A stretch of 34,648 nucleotides of DNA. Origin: Thermoplasmata archaeon. GTDB taxonomy: Archaea; Thermoplasmatota; DAOVMN01. Both the position numbers and the translations under genes were made by a program. This document shows positions 206-13,434 of this stretch, one piece after another. The stretch lies in NCBI GenBank assembly GCA_030630685.1, contig DAOVMN010000001.1, positions 1 through 34,648 on the forward strand. The letters run 5' to 3'. Within the stretch, counting starts at the first letter, position 1. The number at the start of each line of letters is the position of its first letter. The notes beneath the pieces were generated by a model. That model did not search any database and was not told the DNA's origin. It saw only the letters and a program-made list of their open reading frames with translations.

Positions 206-1939
206 ATGTGGAACAGCGACGACCTCAAACAAACCCTCCGCCGGATCGACGGACTGGGCTACAAGGCCTACAAAGACCTTCGTGGGAGCTACGATTTCGT
301 GGACTACACCCTTATTATCGATCATGTCCAGGGGGACCCCTTTGCCTCCCCAAGCCGGGTGCGTGTGCAGGTACCTCAGAAAGCCGCAGGATTCCCTGAG
401 GATACCTACCGGAACAAGAGCCGTGAGATCGCTTTACGGGATTTCCTCACCCGCTGCTTCAATGCGGCCTGCAGGGGATTCGTTAATGGAAAGCGCGGGA
501 TCGGGAAGAGCGGGATCATTTCCATGGACAGGCCTGGGCAGGAGATTCTAAAGCGCACATCGGTGTTCGTCTCTGCCCAATACCTGGAAGCCCGATTCGT
601 GATGGGGCTACCTGCCTTCGGAAGAAGGATTGCGGGACGACATGCAGAAGACATGTTCTTCGAGGAGCTCCCAAGAATAGTGGAAAGCTCACTCTTTTTC
701 AGAAACCTGAATGAAAAGGAGCTTTACGAGCATATCAAAACTGCGGAGGATGCCGACTTCCTGAGGAATAGATTGCAGGAAATAGGTATAGTGGCCTTCG
801 TTGCAGACGGGGCGGTTCTTCCCCGTGTCACCGGGATCGACCCTCGGCCTTTGAGAGGGGAGAATGTGGTGCCCTTCCGGTCTCCGGAATCGCTCAGGAT
901 CGAAATGGAGCTCCCTAATCGCGGTACCATTACCGGCATGGGGATACCCGAAGGCGTCACCCTCATCGTCGGAGGAGGCTACCACGGCAAATCCACGCTG
1001 CTTTCCGCACTCGAACTCGGGGTGTACAATCACATCCCTAAGGACGGAAGGGAACTGGTGGTATCCGGCCCGAGCACAGTGAAGATCAGGGCAGAGGACG
1101 GCAGAAGGATCGAGAAAGTAGATATTTCTCCCTTTATCACAAACCTGCCTTTCGGACAGGATACCCGGGAGTTCTCGACCGAGGACGCAAGCGGGAGCAC
1201 CTCCCAGGCGGCCAACATCATCGAGGCCCTGGAAGTGGGGGCAAGGGTGCTGCTCATAGACGAGGACACCTCTGCCACAAACTTCATGATCAGGGACCAC
1301 AGAATGCAGGAGCTCGTATCCAAGGAGAGGGAGCCCATAACTCCCTTTATAGACAAGGTACGCCAGCTTTACAGCGATCTTGGCGTCTCCACCATCCTGG
1401 TCATCGGGGGTTCGGGGGACTACTTCGATGTGGCGGATCGCGTGATCTGCATGTTGGAGTACAGACCTATAGATATGACAGGCGAGGCAAGGGCCATTGC
1501 AGAGAAGTACAGGGCGGAGCGCACGTCCGAGGGTGGAGAGCACTTCGGCCACATCACGCGGCGAATCCCCTTGGCACAAAGCTTCGACCCGAGCAGGGGC
1601 AGAAGGGAGGTCAGGATCTCCCCCAAAGGGCTCCAATCCATAGCGTTTGGGACACACAACATCGACCTTGGTGCAGTGGAGCAGCTTGTGGATACGAGCC
1701 AGACAAGGGCCATCGGGGATGCCATCCACTATGCCACAGGATTCATGGACGGCAAAAAAACTTTGAATGAGATCGTGGAGGAAGTAATGAATGCAGTAAA
1801 AGAAAGCGGCCTAAATGTGCTCTCTCCAAGACCTGTGGGGGACTATGCCGTGTTCAGGGCACACGAGCTTGCGGCGGCCATCAACCGCCTCAGGACGTTA
1901 GCAGTGAGGCAGGACAGAGGCAACTCGGGAATGGGGTGA
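206..1939 (+). CDS. Predicted ABC-class ATPase (COG3044 / ABC_ATPase-domain type)
   Basis: 577-aa ORF with Walker A GGGYHGKSTLL and Walker B LLIDEDTSATNF. A strong SD lies upstream. The long antisense ORFs are shadows. Confidence 0.8.
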   Translation: MWNSDDLKQTLRRIDGLGYKAYKDLRGSYDFVDYTLIIDHVQGDPFASPSRVRVQVPQKAAGFPEDTYRNKSREIALRDFLTRCFNAACRGFVNGKRGIGKSGIISMDRPGQEILKRTSVFVSAQYLEARFVMGLPAFGRRIAGRHAEDMFFEELPRIVESSLFFRNLNEKELYEHIKTAEDADFLRNRLQEIGIVAFVADGAVLPRVTGIDPRPLRGENVVPFRSPESLRIEMELPNRGTITGMGIPEGVTLIVGGGYHGKSTLLSALELGVYNHIPKDGRELVVSGPSTVKIRAEDGRRIEKVDISPFITNLPFGQDTREFSTEDASGSTSQAANIIEALEVGARVLLIDEDTSATNFMIRDHRMQELVSKEREPITPFIDKVRQLYSDLGVSTILVIGGSGDYFDVADRVICMLEYRPIDMTGEARAIAEKYRAERTSEGGEHFGHITRRIPLAQSFDPSRGRREVRISPKGLQSIAFGTHNIDLGAVEQLVDTSQTRAIGDAIHYATGFMDGKKTLNEIVEEVMNAVKESGLNVLSPRPVGDYAVFRAHELAAAINRLRTLAVRQDRGNSGMG

Positions 1940-1943
1940 TAGG

Positions 1944-3104
1944 ATCACAAAACACATAATTGCCTTTTTCATCAATCCCATCGCAGGAATGGGCGGAAGG
2001 GTGGGCCTTAAAGGTACCGACAACATGGCAGAGAAAGCACGGGCCCTGGGAGCAGAGGAGGTATCACCTGCCCGTGCGAAGGAGGCTCTTCTCCAGCTTT
2101 TCCGCCTTCTCTCCACGGAACCCGGAATCAAACTGATCGTCCTAACACCGGAATCCCCCATGGGAAGGGAAGTTTGCAAGATGGCCATAAAAGAAGCGGG
2201 GATCAAAGAAGAAAGAGTAGCCATCGAGACCATCTATTCCCCACAGGATCCTACAACCCCGGAGGACACGAAGCGTTTCTGTGCCCTTGCGAAAGCGAGG
2301 AATGCCGAGCTCATCCTCTTTACCGGTGGCGACGGGACCGCTAAGGATGTGGTGAGTGCGGTGGGCGAGAGGTACCCGATCCTTGGGATCCCTTCCGGAG
2401 TGAAGATGCACTCAGGGGTATTCACCTGCACCCCCACCGATGCAGGTAACGCGGTCCTGGAATTCCTGAGCGGCCGGGCAGCCCTGGAAGCCCGCGAGGT
2501 CGTGGACCTGGACGAGGACGCCTACCGAGAAGGGAATATCAGGACCAGGCTCTTCGGTTATGCGGAGGTCCCTGCCACCACCCGCCTTCAGGGATGCAAG
2601 GGCGTTATATTGGGCGTGGATGATAAAGCGGACAGGGAGAGCATTGCCCTTGGACTGAAGGAATTCATGGATGAAAATCCAGGTATCTATATCCTTGGAG
2701 CAGGCTCCACCCTGAAGGACATCGGGGAGTTCCTTGGTCTAAAACTAACCCCTCTGGGATTCGATCTGGTTGCAGTGGATAAGGGAGAACTCGAGCTTCT
2801 TGGGGGGGATGTGAACGAAGAACAAATCCTACAGGTGCTTAAGGATTTCCCAGTGGAAAGAAGGTATCTGGTCATTACCCCGATAGGTGCACAGGGATTC
2901 ATTCTCGGCAGGGGGACCCAGGTCATTTCAGATAAGGTTCTTCGTGGACTTCAAAGGGAGAACCTCATGGTGGTGGCTACCCCGGGAAAGCTCGCGATCA
3001 CCCCAACCCTCAGGGTGGACACAGGAGAATTTGACAGGGATCTGAGAGGCTTCCTCAGGGTTATGACAAGCTACAGAAGGTATGCTCAAAAGAAGGTGGA
3101 ATAG
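1944..3104 (+). CDS. ATP-NAD kinase-like protein (COG3199 type)
   Basis: The first ATG is at 1989 (MGGRVGLKGTD...). The frame is open from 1908 and encodes ITKHIIAFFINPIAG just upstream, which looks like the family's conserved first strand. No ATG/GTG/TTG occurs there. ATC at 1944 follows GGGGTGA by 4 nt. The 5' end is therefore uncertain. Confidence 0.7.
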   Translation: MTKHIIAFFINPIAGMGGRVGLKGTDNMAEKARALGAEEVSPARAKEALLQLFRLLSTEPGIKLIVLTPESPMGREVCKMAIKEAGIKEERVAIETIYSPQDPTTPEDTKRFCALAKARNAELILFTGGDGTAKDVVSAVGERYPILGIPSGVKMHSGVFTCTPTDAGNAVLEFLSGRAALEAREVVDLDEDAYREGNIRTRLFGYAEVPATTRLQGCKGVILGVDDKADRESIALGLKEFMDENPGIYILGAGSTLKDIGEFLGLKLTPLGFDLVAVDKGELELLGGDVNEEQILQVLKDFPVERRYLVITPIGAQGFILGRGTQVISDKVLRGLQRENLMVVATPGKLAITPTLRVDTGEFDRDLRGFLRVMTSYRRYAQKKVE

Positions 3105-3105
3105 A

Positions 3106-3693
3106 TTAGCCCGATCTCTCCCCGATTTCCTTCTTCTCAAGTTCCTTTAGGATCTCGAATGGAGGGTTGACCGGGTCGAGAGATTGGAGGAGCTCGGATG
3201 CCATTTTCTTGCTGATGTTAAGGGTCCTGAGGAGGTAGTAGATGGAGATCGTTGTCACCTTTTTCTTGTGCTCTTCCTCAAGGTCTAACAGCCTCTTTGT
3301 GTTGTAATAGAACTCTATGGCAAACTCGGAATAGTAGAGATAGGCATTCTCGGGGTCGATCTTTGCGGCATTTCTGTAGCATTCCTCTGCCCTCCTGAAG
3401 AGACCGTTATCAAGACAGAACCCCCCATATCTAACGTAATAGAGTGGGTTCTTACCATCAAGTTCGATGACCTTTTCATAGAGTTCACCGATATCCCGGA
3501 CCGTGAGCTTGGGGATGCCTATGGAGGCCTCTGCTTTACTGAAATACCCCCGTGGATCCCCGGGCCTCGCCTTGATGGCCTTATTGAATCTGGATACGGC
3601 ACCTTTGAAGTCAAGGCGATTAAGGAGCTGTTCACCCTGAGCAAGTGTTTTCTCTATCTCGTCATCTTTCTTTTCCACGGTTTTGTCCGCCAT
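3106..3693 (-). CDS. TPR-repeat protein
   Basis: Repeated A/Y/F-spaced 34-aa-like helical units (e.g. AEECYRNAAKIDPENAYLYY). The ORF track starts at TTG 3711. ATG 3693 has GAGGT upstream. Confidence 0.65.
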   Translation of the reverse strand: MADKTVEKKDDEIEKTLAQGEQLLNRLDFKGAVSRFNKAIKARPGDPRGYFSKAEASIGIPKLTVRDIGELYEKVIELDGKNPLYYVRYGGFCLDNGLFRRAEECYRNAAKIDPENAYLYYSEFAIEFYYNTKRLLDLEEEHKKKVTTISIYYLLRTLNISKKMASELLQSLDPVNPPFEILKELEKKEIGERSG

Positions 3694-3931
3694 GCTCATA
3701 CCTCTCAACAAGGATTCTGTTTTTTATAAATAAGCCTTACTGAAAAGGTATAAATAGTGGTTATGGTTAGGCCGCACTGGGATATAAGGAGTCCGGGAGT
3801 GACACAAAAATGTGAGGGGCAATAATGAGCGCCGGTTGCTGAAACGGGGCATTAGAAAGGCTTATATATGAGCTCGACATCTCCTTTTATGGCCTTTGGG
3901 CAATAAGCCCTACACAAAAGGGAGCCAATCT

Positions 3932-4099
3932 ATGGGAAACATCGATAAGATAATGGCACTCTTCAAGCCCAAGAAGACGACTGAGGAAACCTCCGAGGCA
4001 CCTGAGCCCCTCACACCCAAAAAAGAGGAAGAAGAAACCTCTGAAGCACCTGAGGATATCAAGCCAAAAGAAGAGGAAGAAGAGTCCTCTGAGGAATAA
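3932..4099 (+). CDS. Small acidic repeat protein (hypothetical)
   Basis: GGGAG lies 7 nt upstream of ATG 3932 and a TATA-like ttatatat lies at 3862-3869. The protein has internal EETSEAPE repeats. Because it is low-complexity, the antisense frame is also open. Confidence 0.3.
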   Translation: MGNIDKIMALFKPKKTTEETSEAPEPLTPKKEEEETSEAPEDIKPKEEEEESSEE

Positions 4100-4172
4100 A
4101 CCTACTCGCAATTTAGTCTTACGAGGCAGGAAATCAGCACTTCTACGGGATGGGGAAAAGCAACCAAACCCA

Positions 4173-4199
4173 GAAATCCTCCTTCAGGGGATTTCTTTT
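4173..4199 (+). terminator. Stem-loop (GAAATCC / GGATTTC) followed by TTTT
   Basis: 7-bp stem at 4173-4179 and 4189-4195, then cttttc. It lies downstream of the small ORF. Confidence 0.35.
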
Positions 4200-4311
4200 C
4201 ATTCTGGGGCAGAGAGCAATCTTTCCCTTCAGATCATTCTGTTGACATTCAAACGGGCTAAAAATTGAAATATCAAAACTGAGTTCTTCGCATAGTCTAA
4301 TGTCAAGAAGC

Positions 4312-4385
4312 GGGCTTATGGTCTAGCTGGTTATGACGTCGCCCTCACACGGCGAAGATCTCCGGTTCGAATCCGGATAAGCCCA
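4312..4385 (+). tRNA. tRNA-Val (anticodon CAC)
   Basis: Hand-folded cloverleaf. Acceptor GGGCTTA/TAAGCCC, anticodon arm TCGCC-CTCACAC-GGCGA, T arm TCCGG-TTCGAAT-CCGGA, discriminator A. No encoded CCA. Confidence 0.9.
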
Positions 4386-4417
4386 CTCATCCCTATCATC
4401 AAAATGGGGGCACACTA

Positions 4418-5188
4418 TTGAAAGCAAACATATTCCTGTTTTTCATGGGCACCGCAGGCGCAGGCAAATCCACCATGACCAGTGCGTTTCAGAGCTGGAT
4501 GTTCGGCCAGGGCTACGATGCCGTAACCGTCAACCTGGACCCTGGAGCAATCAATCTGCCCTATTCGCCGGATGTGGACATTCGTGACTGGGTAAGGTTG
4601 GAAGAGGTGATGGACGAGTACAGCCTCGGTCCAAACGGTGCGCAGGTCACCTCCTCGGATCTCATGTACCTTTATATCGAGGACATACGCCAGAGCTTGG
4701 AGGGATTCCGGACAGACTATTTCCTTGTGGACACGCCCGGTCAGATCGAGCTTTTTGCCTATCGGGATACCTCAAATGACATGATTCGGTCCATCTCGAT
4801 CGGGGGATCGGCGGCTGTCTATCTCTTCGAACCCCATCTTGCCAGCACCCCTGCCGGTATGGTCTCCCAGCTTGCCTTGGCCTCCTCTGTGAAATACCGG
4901 CTCGGGATGCCATTCATCCAGGTTCTCAATAAGGCGGACATGCTAAAACCCGAGGTAAGGGAGAGGATCATGAGATGGGCGAACCCTGAGGTTCTGTATG
5001 CGGAACTAACCTCAAATGGGGGATCCATGAACAACGAGCTTGGCGTGGGGCTCTTCAGGGCGCTGGAGTGTACCGGAGAGGCTGTTAGGCTCATCCCCTG
5101 CTCTGCTGCCACCATGGAGGGCATAGAGGATATCTACAGTGCTGTGCAGGCGCTCTTCATGGGCGGGGAGGATCTCGATCAGGAGTAA
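4418..5188 (+). CDS. GPN-loop GTPase
   Basis: P-loop GTAGAGKST, GPN motif (LGPNGA) and NKAD. A TTG start at 4418 is needed to keep the strand preceding the P-loop. Confidence 0.85.
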   Translation: MKANIFLFFMGTAGAGKSTMTSAFQSWMFGQGYDAVTVNLDPGAINLPYSPDVDIRDWVRLEEVMDEYSLGPNGAQVTSSDLMYLYIEDIRQSLEGFRTDYFLVDTPGQIELFAYRDTSNDMIRSISIGGSAAVYLFEPHLASTPAGMVSQLALASSVKYRLGMPFIQVLNKADMLKPEVRERIMRWANPEVLYAELTSNGGSMNNELGVGLFRALECTGEAVRLIPCSAATMEGIEDIYSAVQALFMGGEDLDQE

Positions 5189-5618
5189 TTTCATCTTACG
5201 AGCATTAATCTTTTTTACCACCTCTCCCTTGCGAGGCTGATGCGCGTAGAATACTTTTGTCTACTAAGGGCCAACCTCATAATAAGATGGCGATTTCCAA
5301 CTTTTCTGTGGCAGGTAATTAGACCAGTAATTTAAAGAAACACCGCATATTCTCTGTCATTTCAAGCCCTTCACTTTTAAGCCTTTTGAGATACAGATAA
5401 TGAAATTCGATAAGTTACTTTTTGGCAAGTCCTAAGTCAGGATGGTTATCCAAGATAGCCATTCTTGAATTATCGATGGCACTTAGGAGAAAACTTAAAG
5501 ATTTAGAAACAGATAGGCAAGCGATTCCAGAATTTTGAAAGATTTTCATATTCGACGGATATTAATTTAATTCAAAGTAAAAGAAATTCGCGCCCTTTAC
5601 CTTACCCAGGTGTATAAT

Positions 5619-6272
5619 ATGTCAATATTAACCGATGTTGAAATCCTTGAAGCCATTGAGCAAAAAGAAATAAAGATTGAGCCTTTTGATGATCCTGGCA
5701 TGTTAGTAGGTGTTACTTATGACTTAAGAGTCGGAGGAGAATGTTATATTGGAGGCCAAGAGGATAAGATTTATTTATCTGATGATCCCTCAGGCAAACA
5801 TAGTTTGCACATCCCTCCAAGGCAATTCGCAATTCTCGAAACCTATGAATCCATAACATTTGGACCCTCGATAGCAGGGAGATTTGGTTTAATCTCTAAG
5901 TATTCAAAAAAAGGGTTAGTTTTCCTCAGTGGCCCAGTTGTTGATCCCACATTTTCAGGCTCTATTAAAATTGGTATATATAATACTAGTTCCCATGACA
6001 TATATCTCTCATTTAAGGAACCTATTTGTACAATCGTTTTCTATAAAGTTGGTCAAATTAAAAATCTGCCAAAAAATCTAGATAATTTAGGTCGAGGAAT
6101 AAAAAGTGATGATGTGGATTATCTTAAAACAAATTATGGGTTGAGTGAATTTGAGAAAAGGCTATCAAAGATTGAAAATAACTTTATACTAATGAAAAAG
6201 ATTGGATGGATAGTATTAGCAGCTCTTATAAGTGGATTTATTGGTTTTCTTTTTGGGATGTTCAGTTGGTGA
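5619..6272 (+). CDS. dCTP deaminase/dUTPase-fold (Dcd-like) protein with a C-terminal transmembrane helix
   Basis: N-terminus MSILTDVEILEAIEQKEIKIEPF and VVDPTFSGSIKIGIYN align by eye to Dcd IDPGWSGCIVLEFYN. The C-terminal IGWIVLAALISGFIGFLFGMFSW is hydrophobic. The stop lies 4 nt before the thyX ATG. Confidence 0.6.
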   Translation: MSILTDVEILEAIEQKEIKIEPFDDPGMLVGVTYDLRVGGECYIGGQEDKIYLSDDPSGKHSLHIPPRQFAILETYESITFGPSIAGRFGLISKYSKKGLVFLSGPVVDPTFSGSIKIGIYNTSSHDIYLSFKEPICTIVFYKVGQIKNLPKNLDNLGRGIKSDDVDYLKTNYGLSEFEKRLSKIENNFILMKKIGWIVLAALISGFIGFLFGMFSW

Positions 6273-6276
6273 TATC

Positions 6277-7146
6277 ATGAAAGTTGCTTTAATTAAATAT
6301 ACGCCAGATCCTGAGATATTATGTGCATTGGCTGCAAAATCATGCCACACGAAAGCCTTTCCAAAGGTTACAAAAAAAGAGTCTACTGACCTTTTAACGC
6401 AGATTATTAATCCAAAATCGATTTATATTGTTGATGAAAATCAGTCATCTCTTTATGATTTTTATGAGAATGGTGGAAGGGAGAAAATTAGTGAGGAATC
6501 GAGTGAAGAGATTATTCGCTTTGTAAGCACCGCAGGGCACCATAGCGTGTTAGAACATAGTTCATTCACGTTTGTAATTGAAGGCATTTCAAGAGCATGT
6601 AGCCACCAAATGGTTAGGCACAGAATTGCCTCTTTTACACAACAAAGTCAGAGATATGTAAATTTAAAAACCTTTGATTACATAATTCCCCCGAAAATAG
6701 CTAATAACACTGAGGCTATGACTGAGTATAAAAAAATTATTAAGAAGATAAAAGGGGGGTATAAAGATCTATTAAAGTTAGGAATTCCAAAAGAGGACAT
6801 TCGTTATCTTTTACCTAATGCCACTTCAACAAACCTCATTATGACTATGAACGCTCGTTCTTTACTTCATTTTTTTAGTTTGAGATGCTGTATGAGGGCT
6901 CAGTGGGAGGTTAGAGAGGTTGCTAACAAGATGCTCCAACAAGTGAAAAATGTTTCTCCAATCATATTTGCTAATGCTGGGGCTCCATGTGAAAGAGGCT
7001 TCTGCCCAGAGGGCGATCTAACGTGCGGGCGTTTAGAAAAAATAAAAAGAAAAGAAAAGCTCAGGTTAGACGAGATAAAGGACGAGGAATCTTACAGTAG
7101 TCCCACAGAAAGTCAAGGAAAAAACCAAGCTGAAGTCCAAGTTTGA
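6277..7146 (+). CDS. thyX: Flavin-dependent thymidylate synthase ThyX (cassette copy, full length)
   Basis: ThyX signature RHRIASFTQQSQRY, plus GHHSVLEH and [20 protein letters not shown]. Confidence 0.85.
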   Translation: MKVALIKYTPDPEILCALAAKSCHTKAFPKVTKKESTDLLTQIINPKSIYIVDENQSSLYDFYENGGREKISEESSEEIIRFVSTAGHHSVLEHSSFTFVIEGISRACSHQMVRHRIASFTQQSQRYVNLKTFDYIIPPKIANNTEAMTEYKKIIKKIKGGYKDLLKLGIPKEDIRYLLPNATSTNLIMTMNARSLLHFFSLRCCMRAQWEVREVANKMLQQVKNVSPIIFANAGAPCERGFCPEGDLTCGRLEKIKRKEKLRLDEIKDEESYSSPTESQGKNQAEVQV

Positions 7147-7192
7147 GTGTTAATAGTCGAGATATTGGTCTTATACAGTAATCAACCGAACA

Positions 7193-7519
7193 TTACTCGA
7201 GGCTGGGGTAGTCAATGAGGACGCCAGGTACGTTCTCCCGAATGCGGCCAAGAACAACATCACCATCACCATGAACGCGCGGGAGCTATTGCACTTCTTT
7301 TCCCTACGCTGCTGCAATAGGGCACAGTGGGAGATCCGGGAGCTCGCCCTGAAGATGCTTGAGAAGGTAAAGAAGGTGGCCCCAAAGATCTTCGAGAAGG
7401 CCGGTGCGGCGTGTGTGGTCCTGGGTTATTGTCCGGAAACAGAAAGCTGCGGTAGAGCCCCTCCGCTGAAGGAGATTATAGGGACGCACAGGAAAGGCAA
7501 GGCCAAGAGAGAGGATTAA
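7193..7519 (+). pseudogene. thyX: 3' fragment of a second, normal-GC thyX (lacks the N-terminal two thirds including the RHR motif)
   Basis: The frame reads [50 protein letters not shown]... This parallels residues [50 protein letters not shown] of the cassette ThyX. An in-frame stop lies at 7154-7156. Confidence 0.75.
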
Positions 7520-7527
7520 TTGGAGGG

Positions 7528-8022
7528 CTATCCTATCTTTAGTTCCACCATCTCCTCCTGTGCAGCGAAATCCATGATTCTTACCCTGGAGATTACCTCC
7601 ACTATCACAGGGGAATGAGCCGTTTTCTCAGGGAAAAATAGGAGGCCATTGATCTCTTCTTTCCCTATCAGAAGCGTGCATGGGAGAGAGATTCCGGGAT
7701 AGTACTCTTTTCCATCCTTCTCGAAACCATTGATCAGGATGCCTTTATGTTCCTTCAGCTTCTCGATATCTTCAAGTTCCGCACTGCCAATCCCCTCGAG
7801 GCGGATGTTGAGGGTGCCTGGAAAAGGGGGGGTGTGGAGCAGTCTTGTGAACTGTTCCGTGTATTCGGGGATGGAGAGGTATTCCTTACCCTCCCCTACC
7901 CCTGGGACGATTTTACCCCTAAGTTTGAGGGCTAACTGGTGGCCTGATGGGCTCATCACCTTCGACACACCCGGCCGGATTAATACATTTTTCCCAGAAT
8001 CTCCCTTGAGGCTGCAGGTCAT
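7528..8022 (-). CDS. ribK: CTP-dependent (archaeal-type) riboflavin kinase
   Basis: GKIVPGVGEGKEY...PGTLNI motifs resemble MJ0056-type kinases. The start could be ATG 8022 or ATG 7956. Confidence 0.75.
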   Translation of the reverse strand: MTCSLKGDSGKNVLIRPGVSKVMSPSGHQLALKLRGKIVPGVGEGKEYLSIPEYTEQFTRLLHTPPFPGTLNIRLEGIGSAELEDIEKLKEHKGILINGFEKDGKEYYPGISLPCTLLIGKEEINGLLFFPEKTAHSPVIVEVISRVRIMDFAAQEEMVELKIG

Positions 8023-8127
8023 CTCCTCGGAAAAAAACGCATAGCCGCTGCAGTGAGCTCAGGACGGAGCGAAGCTAGGATCTGGGTCGGAGAGACCGAA
8101 GGGAGCGAAGCGTTTTCCAGAAGGAGC

Positions 8128-8480
8128 TTATCGTTTTCTGTAACCAAATTTCTTATCATATTTCTTATGGCCAACTATGTCTAACACAAAGGCGATGATC
8201 TCCACTGTTGATTCTCCATCGGTAAGTGTGTAAAGCATCCGCCAATAACGAGCCAATTCAACTCGAAACAGGTTTTGACCCCAAAGTTTTCAATATATTC
8301 TCTTGGGATCAATGACTTTGAAATTGGTTTTCCATAATGTGGATTTGCCTTGATCAATTCCACCTTTGTATTTATTGAGTTAAGTATTGATCTGTCTATC
8401 TTGGATTCGGAAGCATGTTCGTTCAGATATCTATAGGCTTCTTCTGCATCCACTGAGAGAATCACTCGTACCTCTCTCAT
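8128..8480 (-). pseudogene. RelE/ParE-superfamily-like toxin, interrupted by a 1-nt frameshift near 8273-8276
   Basis: The ORF 8181-8480 ends in an odd tail. Shifting frame at the A4 run restores NLFRVELARYWRMLYTLTDGESTVEIIAFVLDIVGHKKYDKKFGYRKR, with a stop at 8128-8130. It overlaps the upstream gene by 4 nt. Confidence 0.6.
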
Positions 8481-8755
8481 AACTCGAGCCCCTTTGAGAT
8501 TGCTTCTCTTAGTTTGGGATTTGGATTAAAAACCCAGGTTATCCCATCTATGGTGAAGAGTATCTTATTACTCTCTTCGAGATATCTGAGAATTGTTTTT
8601 AGCCTATTATGGTTGACTTTTTTTGGAAGCATTCTTTTCAGTTCTGCGATTGTGATTACACTCTCATCCATATTTCGTAATGTCTCTTCCACCATAATGA
8701 CCGTATTGAGTGTCGGTGAGTGCTCGTATCTGTGTATGGCTTTTGTAGATGTCAT
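8477..8755 (-). CDS. Putative antitoxin / small DNA-binding partner of the toxin
   Basis: 92 aa. The 4-nt overlap with the toxin start matches TA operon architecture. No family was recognised by eye. Confidence 0.45.
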   Translation of the reverse strand: MTSTKAIHRYEHSPTLNTVIMVEETLRNMDESVITIAELKRMLPKKVNHNRLKTILRYLEESNKILFTIDGITWVFNPNPKLREAISKGLEL

Positions 8756-8855
8756 TCTATCACTCTTTGATATTAGTTAGTAATCATTATGTATCAAACA
8801 GTATAAATAGTTATCTTTTATGAGCCCCTTATGGAAAATTGCGTATAACTCAGTT

Positions 8856-8921
8856 ATATCCGACATCGATGTCGGATATCCTTCTGATTTGGTGGTATAT
8901 CCAAAGTCCATGTCGGATATA
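8856..8921. promoter_or_regulatory. Two operator-like palindromes sharing TATATCC...GGATAT arms
   Basis: 8856-8879 ATATCCGACATCGATGTCGGATAT is a perfect 24-nt palindrome. 8895-8921 repeats TATATCC-N12-GGATATA and contains a second ATGTCGGATAT (8910-8920), 41 nt from the first. Confidence 0.4.
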
Positions 8922-9004
8922 CCTACCTTTATCTGAAGATTTTTTCTCATGTTTGGCCTCTCTTTTATTCACCATTATTCCATTTAGCTCCCGCTCGTCT
9001 TTAG

Positions 9005-9206
9005 ACATCGAAGATTTCTGAGGACCGGCTGAGTGCGAAGCCATGAGGAAGCGAAGCTTCCGATTGCCGGTTGACGCAAAGCGTCGATAAGCCATGAGGA
9101 ACGAAGTTCTGAGTGGCGGTTGAGTATGCAATACTCGATAAGCACTCGGCAAGGCGTGAAGTGCGAAGCACAGAGCACCGGTTGAGCCTGAAGGGCTCGA
9201 CAAGGC
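9005..9206 (+). repeat. Tandem short-hairpin array B (about 8 hairpins)
   Basis: Stems and loops read directly: GGAAGC-gaa-GCTTCC (9047-9061), GACGC-aaa-GCGTC (9073-9085), GAAC-gaa-GTTC (9099-9109), GAGTAT-gca-ATACTC (9122-9136), GTGC-gaa-GCAC (9161-9171), GAGCCT-gaa-GGGCTC (9184-9198). Linkers are conserved: catgag, ccgg(t/a)tga, tcga(t/c)aagg. Confidence 0.75.
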
Positions 9207-9573
9207 CCACCACGGTTCCCCTATCACGGATCATCAGTTCAAGGCCGCGGTGCGAACAGGTGTAACATTGGATTCTTAAGAGGTATTGAATAACAAATAT
9301 TTAATCTTTCTCTCTGCTTGCCCAAAACACCCAACCCAATCCCTCTTGGAGCCCCCTCTCCATGCTTTGTTCCCGCTCCCCTCGTGGGACCCTTCGCCGC
9401 ACCTTTCACTAAAATAGATACCAATCACACTCATGAGAGGCATGAAACATCACTCAGAGCCCTCGGTACGACCGCAAAGAGTACGCAAAGAAAACGACGA
9501 AATTGTGATCCTTATTCACTACATTACAGCTTTGTCCCAAAATAAACGAGGAAAAATAGAATACAGGATTAAT

Positions 9574-12156: not shown

Positions 12157-12224
12157 CCTGCACCAAAAACCTGTGCGACCTCGCTCCACTCTGTTCCGCT
12201 CGGTCCCACTTTATTAAAAAAAGG

Positions 12225-12296
12225 AGCCGCTGGGGGGAATCGAACCCCCGACCTACGCCTTACCAAGGCGTCGCTATACCGCTAAGCCACAGCGGC
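12225..12296 (-). tRNA. tRNA-Thr (anticodon GGU)
   Basis: Hand-folded. Acceptor GCCGCTG/CAGCGGC, anticodon arm ACGCC-TTGGTAA-GGCGT, T arm GGGGG-TTCGATT-CCCCC, discriminator T. A T7 run follows on the minus strand. Confidence 0.9.
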
Positions 12297-12367
12297 TTTT
12301 GGCAGTTACCGGAAGCCCGCAAACTATGGATTGTATAAAATTGTTTTGATGGACGGAATCGAGACAT

Positions 12368-12755
12368 GGGACTATGTTATAATTTAGCGAATAAGGCACC
12401 ACCCCTTCCTTATGTGGGATAGTTTATCTCCATAAATAGAATCCTAATCAGGCGGGTCGGAACCACACGGGGGGGGGCACCGGGGAGGCATGAGGAAGCG
12501 AAGTTCCGATTGCCGGCTAAACACGAAGTGTTCGTCAAGGAAGTACTCGGCAAGGCGTGCAAACTTATTTGCGCACCGATTGAATCCGCAGGATTCGATA
12601 AGGCATTCGGAAAGCAGTTCCGAATTCCGATTGAGGGCAAAGCCCTCGATAAGGCGGTGAGAAAAAATTCAGCCAGATTGGCATATAGAATCTTGTGAGT
12701 TTCTTATTCACTATGTCACTGACCTCCTTAATCACTGACTTACAACATAGTACCC
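12368..12755. mobile_element. MITE-like non-coding element: ~29-30-nt inverted terminal repeats bracketing hairpin array C
   Basis: gggactatgttataatttagcgaataagg (12368-12396) matches the reverse complement of 12726-12755 (gggtactatgttgtaagtcagtgattaagg). No ORF lies inside. Confidence 0.45.
12489..12654 (+). repeat. Tandem short-hairpin array C (6 hairpins)
   Basis: GGAA..TTCC (12494-12507), AACAC-gaa-GTGTT (12520-12532), GCAAA-ctta-TTTGC (12559-12572), GAATCC-gca-GGATTC (12582-12596), TTCGGAA-agcag-TTCCGAA (12606-12624), GAGGGC-aaa-GCCCTC (12633-12647). It shares 30+ nt blocks with array B. Confidence 0.75.
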
Positions 12756-12824
12756 GATTTTACAGAATCCGGGGATGCAAACATTTAAGTAATTTAGAAA
12801 TCTTTTGGAGATTAAGTGATTTGA

Positions 12825-13061
12825 ATGAGAGCTAAAAATTTAATGGATAGAATCACCATCAATCCTGAGGTAATGATTGGTAAACCAACCATCAGAGGGA
12901 TGAGAATCACGGTAGAGCAGATTCTGAAGGCTCTTGCCAATGGTGTAACAACCAAGGAGCTGCTCGATGATTACCCGGAACTCGAACCGGAAGATATTCA
13001 AGCGGCCCTTCTTTATGCGACCGAGTTGGTAAGTGAAGAACAGGTTTTTGCGGTAGCGTAG
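12825..13061 (+). CDS. DUF433-type small protein (putative antitoxin)
   Basis: ITINPEVMIGKPTIRGMRITVEQIL is the DUF433 signature. It is paired with a DUF5615/PIN-like gene 10 nt downstream. Confidence 0.7.
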   Translation: MRAKNLMDRITINPEVMIGKPTIRGMRITVEQILKALANGVTTKELLDDYPELEPEDIQAALLYATELVSEEQVFAVA

Positions 13062-13071
13062 GTGTCTCAGA

Positions 13072-13434
13072 ATGACTCATGGTAAGCCAAGATTTTTAGT
13101 CGATGTTTGTGTTGGCAGAAAAGTAGAAGATTGGCTTGTGAAAAACGGGTATGATATTAGAACTGTAAGGGAGATCAATCCTCGAATGAATGATAGGGAA
13201 GTATTGAAAATAGCAGTGATTGAGGGCAGAATGGTTGTAACAATGGATAAAGATTTTGGAGAACTTGTCTACAATTCTGGAATGGCCCACTCCGGAGTGT
13301 TACTTTTGAGGATCGAAGATGCCAATGCTAATGAAAAAGTAAAAACCATAGAAAAGATACTAACAGAGTATCAAGATATGTTGTCAAACAATTTTTGCAT
13401 ATTTCAAAACGAGAAACTTAGAATAAGAAAATAA
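13072..13434 (+). CDS. DUF5615 / Mut7-C PIN-like protein (putative toxin)
   Basis: FLVDVCVGRKV...VVTMDKDFGEL has the acidic-residue pattern of PIN-like nucleases. It has the conserved pairing with DUF433. Confidence 0.65.
   Translation: MTHGKPRFLVDVCVGRKVEDWLVKNGYDIRTVREINPRMNDREVLKIAVIEGRMVVTMDKDFGELVYNSGMAHSGVLLLRIEDANANEKVKTIEKILTEYQDMLSNNFCIFQNEKLRIRK

Follow-up and report, generated by a model that had tools for sequence, protein, structure and literature searches.

How does a complete thyX of low GC content come to lie directly in front of the 3' part of another thyX that has the composition of the host? The question is raised by a locus in a stretch of 34,648 nucleotides from a Thermoplasmata archaeon (positions 1 to 34,648 of contig DAOVMN010000001.1, assembly GCA_030630685.1). 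The whole stretch is called the window here, and coordinates refer to it. A sequence-only reading had proposed that a foreign block with a Dcd-like gene and a complete thyX, encoding the flavin adenine dinucleotide (FAD)-dependent thymidylate synthase ThyX, replaced the middle of the resident thyX. This proposal was supported by synteny with a related contig, by the GC content at third codon positions (GC3) and by the identity of the gene starts. We give a probability of roughly 0.8 to xenologous displacement of the essential gene in place, with the low-GC block in the place of the middle of the resident thyX. The evidence consists of the synteny, the start context, the closer similarity of the remnant to an intact native gene, the contrast in GC3 and the agreement of assemblies across both junctions.

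The host genome has a GC content of ~52%, as determined from the window contig. Along the locus the GC fraction was 0.55-0.57 from 4500 to 5200, 0.27-0.40 from ~5250 to 7100 and again 0.55-0.57 from 7200 to 7500; the flanks of the block as a whole lie at ~0.52-0.57. The block extends from 5252 to 7156 on the plus strand, including a non-coding left arm, and is delimited by the drop in GC and by its divergence from a second allele. It contains the Dcd-like gene (5619-6272) and the complete cassette thyX (6277-7146), both on the plus strand. GC3 was 0.257 in the Dcd-like gene and 0.324 in the cassette thyX, compared with 0.690 in the remnant and 0.58-0.71 in 20 other large open reading frames (ORFs) of the window. 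Plotting of GC and codon usage, as suggested earlier, therefore set the cassette (GC3 0.26-0.32) apart from the host (0.58-0.71), and the AT-rich block of ~1.9 kb with its two genes was borne out by the GC profile, GC3 and Pfam matches.

The resident gene was traced with two related contigs, L004 (92.8 kb, JGI) and L005. Each carries a single intact thyX of 235 codons between the genes for a GPN-loop GTPase and a riboflavin kinase (RFK). Both neighbors are present in the window and serve as synteny anchors. The GPN-loop GTPase gene forms the left host flank (4418-5188, plus strand; Pfam ATP_bind_1, E 1.4e-56; GC3 0.689), and the CTP-dependent RFK gene forms the right host flank (7528-8022, minus strand; Pfam CTP-dep_RFKase, E 2.6e-23). 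The position and minus strand of the RFK gene in L004 are the same as in the window, and the L004 protein (P0002) is the closest full-length relative of the remnant. The comparison with related genomes thus yielded an intact single thyX between the same neighbors. A scan of GTDB representatives with the GPN GTPase returned only a 38% match from Promethearchaeota.

At the left junction, the intact L004 gene starts with GCTG ATG CGC GTA GAA CTC (MRVEL). The 16 nucleotides GCTGATGCGCGTAGAA at window positions 5236-5251 are identical to this start, and they are also identical in L007, a 2.5-kb contig from a sister sample that carries the second allele. A ATTAATCTTTT box (5204-5214, plus strand), probably a TATA-like promoter element of the native thyX, is located 21 nucleotides 5' of GCTG-ATG; neither its sequence nor this distance differs among the window, L007 and L004. 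Because of the 16-nucleotide identity and the conserved box spacing, the MRVE stub at 5240-5251 (plus strand), which had been proposed only tentatively as the resident 5' end, is regarded as the genuine native start with the orphaned codons 1-4; its sequence also matches the start in L007. Its frame continues into the foreign sequence until a stop at 5333-5335.

At the right junction, the remnant (7157-7519, plus strand) matched the Thy1 profile at positions 126-190 of 191 with an E value of 1.2e-29 when read from 7172 to 7519, and at positions 125-190 (E 1e-29) when translated from 7157. An in-frame TAA TAG at 7151-7156 precedes it, and the RHR motif is absent. The profile search hence agreed with the earlier description of this frame as the C-terminal part of a second ThyX with an upstream stop and without RHR. 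The remnant is 72% identical to the native L004 ThyX and 58% identical to the cassette ThyX over 96 residues (59% in the tree set). A Cys-rich C-terminal extension is common to the remnant and the cassette protein, and their indel signatures differ (VxLGYCPE versus CER-GFCPE). Because it lacks the RHR motif and a convincing start signal, and because the L007 copy has a deletion in a conserved segment, the remnant is predicted to be a non-functional gene fragment. Its 3' part looks recently derived from a working gene, as it has host GC3, an open frame and mainly synonymous differences from L007. By alignment to the L004 protein, native codons 1-4 and ~121/122-235 were kept and ~117 codons were replaced; the earlier estimate of ~190 replaced codons did not hold.

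A ThyX tree with the cassette copy and the remnant placed separately, as had been proposed, put the two into different groups. In this neighbor-joining tree of ~100 shared residues the remnants grouped with L004 and the two cassette copies grouped together, with 100% bootstrap. The deep nodes had low bootstrap values; in the question of ancestry most of the weight lies with the identities, the indel signatures, the synteny and the composition.

Both junctions were found in independent assemblies. Two Logan contigs from a single run matched the window at 100%, L011 over 4328-5402 and L002 over 7080-8116. An ENA scaffold (L001) was identical over 1921-9472, and a contig of an NCBI metagenome-assembled genome (MAG), L006, was identical across the right junction. 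The left junction lies after codon 4 and the right one ~10 nucleotides past the stop of the cassette thyX, neither of them in conserved thyX sequence. The possibility of a chimeric assembly raised with the sequence-only reading was thus checked with assemblies that cross both junctions at 100% identity.

The cassette ThyX has the features of a complete enzyme. It matched the Thy1 family (Pfam PF02511) over profile positions 2-190 of 191 with 232.8 bits (cut-off 24.8; E 3.7e-69) and TIGR02170 (NCBIfam) with 186 bits (cut-off 87.9), and matches to solved ThyX structures reached E values down to 2e-26. The ThyX motif is defined as RHRxxSxxxxSxR. The RHRIASFTQQSQRY motif is present in the cassette protein in the segment VRHRIASFTQQSQRY, whose motif residues are invariant in the ThyX alignment and aligned with the same motif in 3gwc. 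The protein is 47% identical to the native L004 ThyX and has an N-terminal insertion of ~30 residues that is common to low-GC Thermoplasmatota ThyX and is not found in the native type. In GC3, its gene (0.32) likewise stands apart from thyX of the native type (0.62-0.69). The ratio of non-synonymous to synonymous substitution rates (omega) was 0.15 against the L007 allele, indicating purifying selection. Given the full domain, the intact motif and this selection, the cassette ThyX is the probable present source of thymidylate (dTMP) in the cell.

The first cassette gene, 5619-6272, encodes a tail-anchored member of the dUTPase superfamily. Its product matched Pfam DCD (PF22769) with 62.7 bits (cut-off 27; E 5.6e-17) and dUTPase (PF00692) with 27.1 bits (cut-off 22). 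With TIGR02274 it reached 79.5 bits, below the equivalog cut-off of 92.8, and the match ended at profile position 156 of 180. In dCTP deaminases the catalytic Glu is located in an ITLEL.N motif. The cassette protein has a Gly at the place of the deaminase Glu in the TLE motif, and the segment reads IKIGIYN; 4xjc, 4a6a and 2qxx, which are solved Dcd chains, show ITLEL in the profile alignment at the site where the tail-anchored family has vvGl. A canonical dCTP deaminase was ruled out by the score below the cut-off and the missing Glu. Of the earlier assignment as Dcd-like, the membership in the dUTPase superfamily was retained, and identity with a true Dcd was not. Residues D109, P110, G114 and N122 are invariant in 22 family members, the Asp of (V/I)DPxF is kept, and so is the nucleotide-binding segment of the RSxxARxGL type, which has the variant LISKYSKKGL in the window. 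The hydrophobic C-terminal helix IGWIVLAALISGFIGFLFGMFSW is the membrane anchor. An AGGTG is located 7 nucleotides 5' of the ATG, and the stop codon is separated from the cassette thyX start by 4 nucleotides in the window, compared with an ATGA overlap in L007. If active, the protein is more likely of the dUTPase type, and it could plausibly supply dUMP to ThyX. Its omega between the window and L007 alleles was 0.20. From the omega values of 0.15-0.20 between the alleles, both cassette genes appear to be kept by selection.

Only two close relatives of the Dcd-like protein were detected among 5.8 billion proteins, and a scan of JGI metagenomes with an alignment of the Dcd-like pair returned nothing. 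An exhaustive profile search yielded ~390 representatives with E <1e-10, all with a Dcd-like domain, a linker and a C-terminal transmembrane helix. The tail-anchored family is widespread and apparently undescribed, consists of standalone genes and has no PADLOC match; it constitutes a separate small lead. Neither a ThyX within 3 kb nor a conserved neighbor was present at 80 JGI loci of the family (L027-L106). The pairing with thyX is consequently regarded as particular to this cassette, and a conserved Dcd-like/ThyX module was rejected. In PADLOC-DB 2.0, no defense-system match was obtained for the Dcd-like protein, ThyX or a 44-residue ORF in the left arm of the block, and a reading of the cassette as a defense system was dropped.

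The second allele gave information on the age of the composite locus. L007 contains, in order, a C-terminal portion of the GPN GTPase, an intergenic sequence identical to that of the window together with ATG CGC GTA GAA, a low-GC block with a 213-residue Dcd-like protein and a 272-residue ThyX, and a ThyX remnant with host GC. This remnant is longer, starting at Thy1 profile position 106 or earlier compared with ~125 in the window, and it has lost 6 nucleotides in frame from NITITMNAR, a segment that is free of gaps in all other sequences, which points to relaxed constraint. Nucleotide identity between the window and L007 was 96.6% over 4777-5251, 70% in the Dcd-like gene, 81% in thyX and 94.7% over the 150 nucleotides from 7217. 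The boundaries are abrupt, with a collapse of identity after 5251 in the stub and another boundary within the remnant. The cassette genes showed a synonymous divergence (dS) of 0.80-1.26 with omega values of 0.15-0.20, and the GPN flank differed by 10 synonymous and 2 non-synonymous changes in 136 codons. Because the flanks are 95-97% identical but the cassettes only 70-81%, the composite locus is apparently older than this lineage. The divergence of the cassette alleles goes back much further than that of the flanks, which excludes that both populations simply inherited one insertion from their common ancestor.

The left ends of the two alleles coincide within ~10 nucleotides, and in the left arm 77 nucleotides (5441-5517) are 75% identical to L007 497-573. 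This region overlaps the 44-residue ORF at 5415-5549 on the minus strand, taken from the ORF list, which had no match in Pfam, NCBIfam, PADLOC or PHROG. The counterpart of this frame in L007 reads LSVSESLSFLRNARDKLRISILNDH and has no start codon. The segment is probably a 5' fragment of a donor gene that was once divergent to the Dcd-like/thyX pair.

From these observations the history of the locus can be described as follows. The lineage originally had a single thyX between the GPN-loop GTPase and riboflavin kinase genes. A low-GC fragment of ~1.9 kb has since taken the place of native codons 5 to ~121. It consists of the 5' remains of a divergent gene with an intergenic region, the tail-anchored Dcd-like gene and the linked complete thyX. 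The native promoter region and the first four codons stayed on the left, and the last ~115 codons, now dead, on the right. A single recent insertion into this genome is improbable, since the composite locus exists in a sister population as a deeply diverged allele. Most parsimoniously, the composite of stub, cassette and partial remnant would have arisen earlier, in this or a neighboring clade, and then diverged. Homologous recombination would move it between related genomes, with the stub and the remnant as homology arms. One crossover would fall in the stub or the upstream region and the other in the conserved 3' part of thyX, so that an intact recipient thyX would be turned into a fresh, host-like 3' remnant every time, and no dedicated mobility machinery would be needed.

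Several points weigh against displacement followed by such a spread. The Dcd-like/thyX pair was found in its original donor context in no genome, and an intact native thyX was not found in a genome of this species. A thyA or a second thyX may be present elsewhere in the genome, of which 34.6 kb are covered here. A start of transcription into the block at the retained box of the native thyX promoter is a prediction from sequence. The thyX segments next to the junctions showed ungapped identity at chance level between the two alleles, with no detectable DNA homology, and the right junctions are at different places (profile position 106 versus ~125). The step of spread by recombination is drawn from two alleles and one pairwise mosaic, the comparison of the window with L007. 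Finally, GC3 is low in both alleles despite a dS of ~1, which could reflect separate entry after divergence in low-GC genomes.

Among the alternatives, the block may be a selfish cassette that replaces an essential gene, lacks mobility genes and spreads by means of its own homology arms. If so, transfer would destroy the recipient thyX, make the cell dependent on the cassette and thereby fix the hitch-hiking Dcd-like gene. We consider this unlikely, although the diverged alleles in near-identical backgrounds, the identity boundaries in stub and remnant and the freshly made look of the 3' remnants are compatible with it.

A related but quite unlikely explanation assumes two independent insertions of a selfish thyX-targeting cassette into sister populations from related low-GC donors. 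Delivery could have been viral, by plasmid or through a process akin to homing, and loss of the essential resident gene would force retention. The depth of divergence between the cassettes (dS 0.8-1.26) in nearly identical backgrounds, the donor-like GC3 of 0.26-0.32 kept in both alleles, the different native positions of the right junctions and 3' remnants that look freshly made from functional genes would all be accommodated. However, no endonuclease, integrase, transposase or repeat was found in or beside the block, and no viral or plasmid relative was closer than the cellular ones. The coincidence of the left ends within ~10 nucleotides, together with the homologous non-coding or pseudogene sequence (77 nucleotides, 75%), is not expected of independent illegitimate events. 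In addition, the thyX segments next to the cassette are diverged, where hits in 97%-identical genes would have left them ~97% identical.

Cargo of a conventional integrative mobile element or provirus with thyX as its attachment site was considered as well. Genes for ThyX and Dcd or dUTPase are common viral cargo, with PHROGs families for both, and two virus-like contigs (L014 and L025) carry a ThyX near the remnant type. A tRNA-Val (CAC) gene at 4312-4386 lies 32 nucleotides 5' of the GPN GTPase ORF. It does not adjoin the cassette, the left junction being ~870 nucleotides further downstream, and nothing indicated its use as an integration site. We regard this origin as very unlikely. The block has only ~1.9 kb and contains no integrase, att-like direct repeats, or structural or replication genes, and site-specific integration would not remove ~117 codons of its target. 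An integrase or recombinase gene was not present in 5189-7527 (ORF list and Pfam), the block has no ORF of recombinase size, and direct or inverted repeats of at least 11 nucleotides were not found at the borders. The statement of the sequence-only reading that recombinase and att repeat are missing thus agrees with the ORF list, Pfam and the repeat search.

The suggestion of virus or plasmid cargo as the source obtained no support from the database searches. In IMG/VR no relative was found with the Dcd-like alignment, and the best match to the alignment of the cassette-type ThyX was 48%. In tblastn searches of INPHARED phages and PLSDB plasmids, identity did not exceed 40-42% for ThyX and 28% for the Dcd-like protein. 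In comparison, the nearest ThyX with the ~30-residue insertion (P0123, 54%) is encoded on a contig of 36.6% GC beside EF-1alpha and S10, and the second-nearest (P0124, 50%) comes from a Thermoplasmatota MAG of 31% GC. A viral or plasmid origin, with ThyX matches of at most 48% against 50-54% on low-GC Thermoplasmatota contigs, was therefore considered unsupported. The donor was most likely the chromosome of a low-GC archaeon of the same phylum, since the nearest ThyX proteins are cellular and low in GC and the viral and plasmid matches are more distant.

In a search for other cases of a complete thyX with a remnant, short C-terminal ThyX proteins encoded on long contigs (P0010, P0016 and P0030 on L014, L025 and L026) proved to be split or mis-called genes. 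On L025, a virus-like NCBI contig, and L026, a bacterial ENA contig, thyX is present as two adjacent ORFs (L025:4572-5291, 124 + 96 residues; L026:1817-2502, 125 + 92 residues). On the virus-like contig L014 (4400-5423) only a C-terminal ORF of 140 residues was called, and the 600 bases upstream of it carry no call. These two-ORF or short-called genes may be split genes, frameshifts or cases of recoding.

An old tandem duplication of thyX, followed by truncation of one copy and compositional drift of the other, is highly improbable. The two ThyX sequences do lie head to tail with the Cys-rich C-terminal extension in common. However, GC3 changes from 0.32 to 0.69 within 50 nucleotides, the identity of the remnant is 72% with the L004 ortholog versus 59% with the neighboring copy, and the ~30-residue insertion links the cassette copy to low-GC Thermoplasmatota ThyX and is absent from the native type. 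The unrelated Dcd-like gene came in the same low-GC block. An ancient two-copy arrangement of uniform composition was not seen in the relatives, as just one thyX occupies the locus in L004 and L005. Finally, an assembly chimera joining the contig of a low-GC organism inside thyX has a negligible probability: conserved thyX stretches could mislead a metagenome assembler, but the junctions lie outside such sequence, L001, L002, L006 and L011 from different pipelines agree at 100% across them, and L007 from another sample has the same architecture with diverged sequence.

Further features were noted in the neighborhood of the locus. A second AT-rich islet (8100-9000, GC 0.36-0.40) adjoins the riboflavin kinase gene and contains three minus-strand ORFs at 8181-8480 (99 residues), 8477-8755 (92 residues) and 8777-8950 (57 residues). 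The product of 8477-8755 has a weak AbiEi-like N-terminus (PADLOC, E 0.005). The islet is absent from L004, where the RFK gene is followed by rps12-rps7-EF2-EF1A-rps10, and it may be a toxin-antitoxin-like insertion. At its edge, 8109-8125 shows 11 clustered mismatches to the otherwise identical L006 (AGCGTTTTCCAGAAGGA versus TAAGGAATGAGGGAGGG); this is not an inversion and looks like a small replaced segment. The region 9010-9235 is GC-rich without a convincing ORF and has three similar hairpins of the form CGGTTGA-stem-loop-stem-GAYAAG. It had no Rfam match at E values up to 1 and may be an undescribed structured RNA or repeat; an 11-nucleotide indel relative to L001 is located nearby (9473-9483). 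Two small AT-rich genes come after a tRNA-Thr gene (12223-12296), one for DUF433 and one, at 13072-13434 (GC3 0.32), for DUF5615/Mut7-C (PIN-like); 12223-13434 is a typical toxin-antitoxin islet adjoining a tRNA. Compared over 16.2 kb, the window and L001 are 99.76% identical, and 22 of the 28 substitutions cluster in 1493-1920 at the 3' end of the ORF 206-1939, which suggests a recombination tract or a variable C-terminus.

The components and the architecture of the locus were compared with known systems. The dUTPase of Pyrococcus furiosus, attributed to Hogrefe et al. in 2002, is said to be an archaeal Dcd-like dUTPase. The profile of the cassette family had its best PDB matches in two archaeal chains of this kind, 8y1w and 9ln0 (155/156 residues), at E 4e-43; both are titled 'dCTP deaminase' by their depositors, and a literature search on the two entries returned only unrelated papers. 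Where true dCTP deaminases have Glu, these chains have Met and the cassette family has Gly. In contrast to them, the cassette protein, like its ~390 distant relatives, is extended by a coiled-coil-like linker and by a transmembrane helix at the C-terminus, and the other members of the tail-anchored family have no linkage to thyX.

In Rhs and contact-dependent inhibition (CDI) toxin loci, modules are displaced and orphan fragments are left behind. For the effector/immunity loci of Vibrio cholerae's type VI secretion system (T6SS), displacement of C-terminal modules leaving orphan fragments is reported (Kirchberger et al. 2017, PMC5361080). The thyX locus is similar in that a complete incoming module lies upstream, the old 3' piece is orphaned downstream and homology is present on at least one side. 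The toxin loci differ in being polymorphic, under diversifying selection and often left with a functional orphan (an immunity gene), whereas the present locus concerns a housekeeping enzyme gene with a leftover of no evident function.

The genes thyA and thyX are among the essential genes most often transferred or displaced, and a transitional state with two thy genes has been postulated (Stern et al. 2010, PMC2826268). That study modelled non-homologous displacement between thyA and thyX, explicitly left homologous (xenologous) replacement uncounted and reported no pseudogenized thy gene in genomes with both types (PMC2826268). The present locus differs from the cases in that survey, as it represents displacement of thyX by thyX with a pseudogene remnant.

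The closest parallel is xenologous gene displacement in situ, which Omelchenko, Koonin and colleagues reportedly described in mosaic operons. As in those cases, a distantly related foreign homolog occupies the original position, the neighbors stay and the function is probably taken over. The locus is thus a well-preserved instance of a conceptually known gene displacement and no new kind of system. When foreign homologs displace essential genes, this is usually deduced from trees, long after the physical traces have vanished. Here one can still see the native promoter and start with four codons, exactly how much was deleted, the foreign block with a piece of its donor neighborhood and the dead 3' end of ~115 codons. 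The locus can therefore serve as a worked example of the mechanism of homologous displacement in archaea and possibly as a test case for the spread of cassettes by recombination. It differs further from the usual cases in the co-transfer of a second gene and in the two diverged composite alleles of sister populations, the second of which indicates that a locus of this composite kind can be maintained and can undergo exchange.

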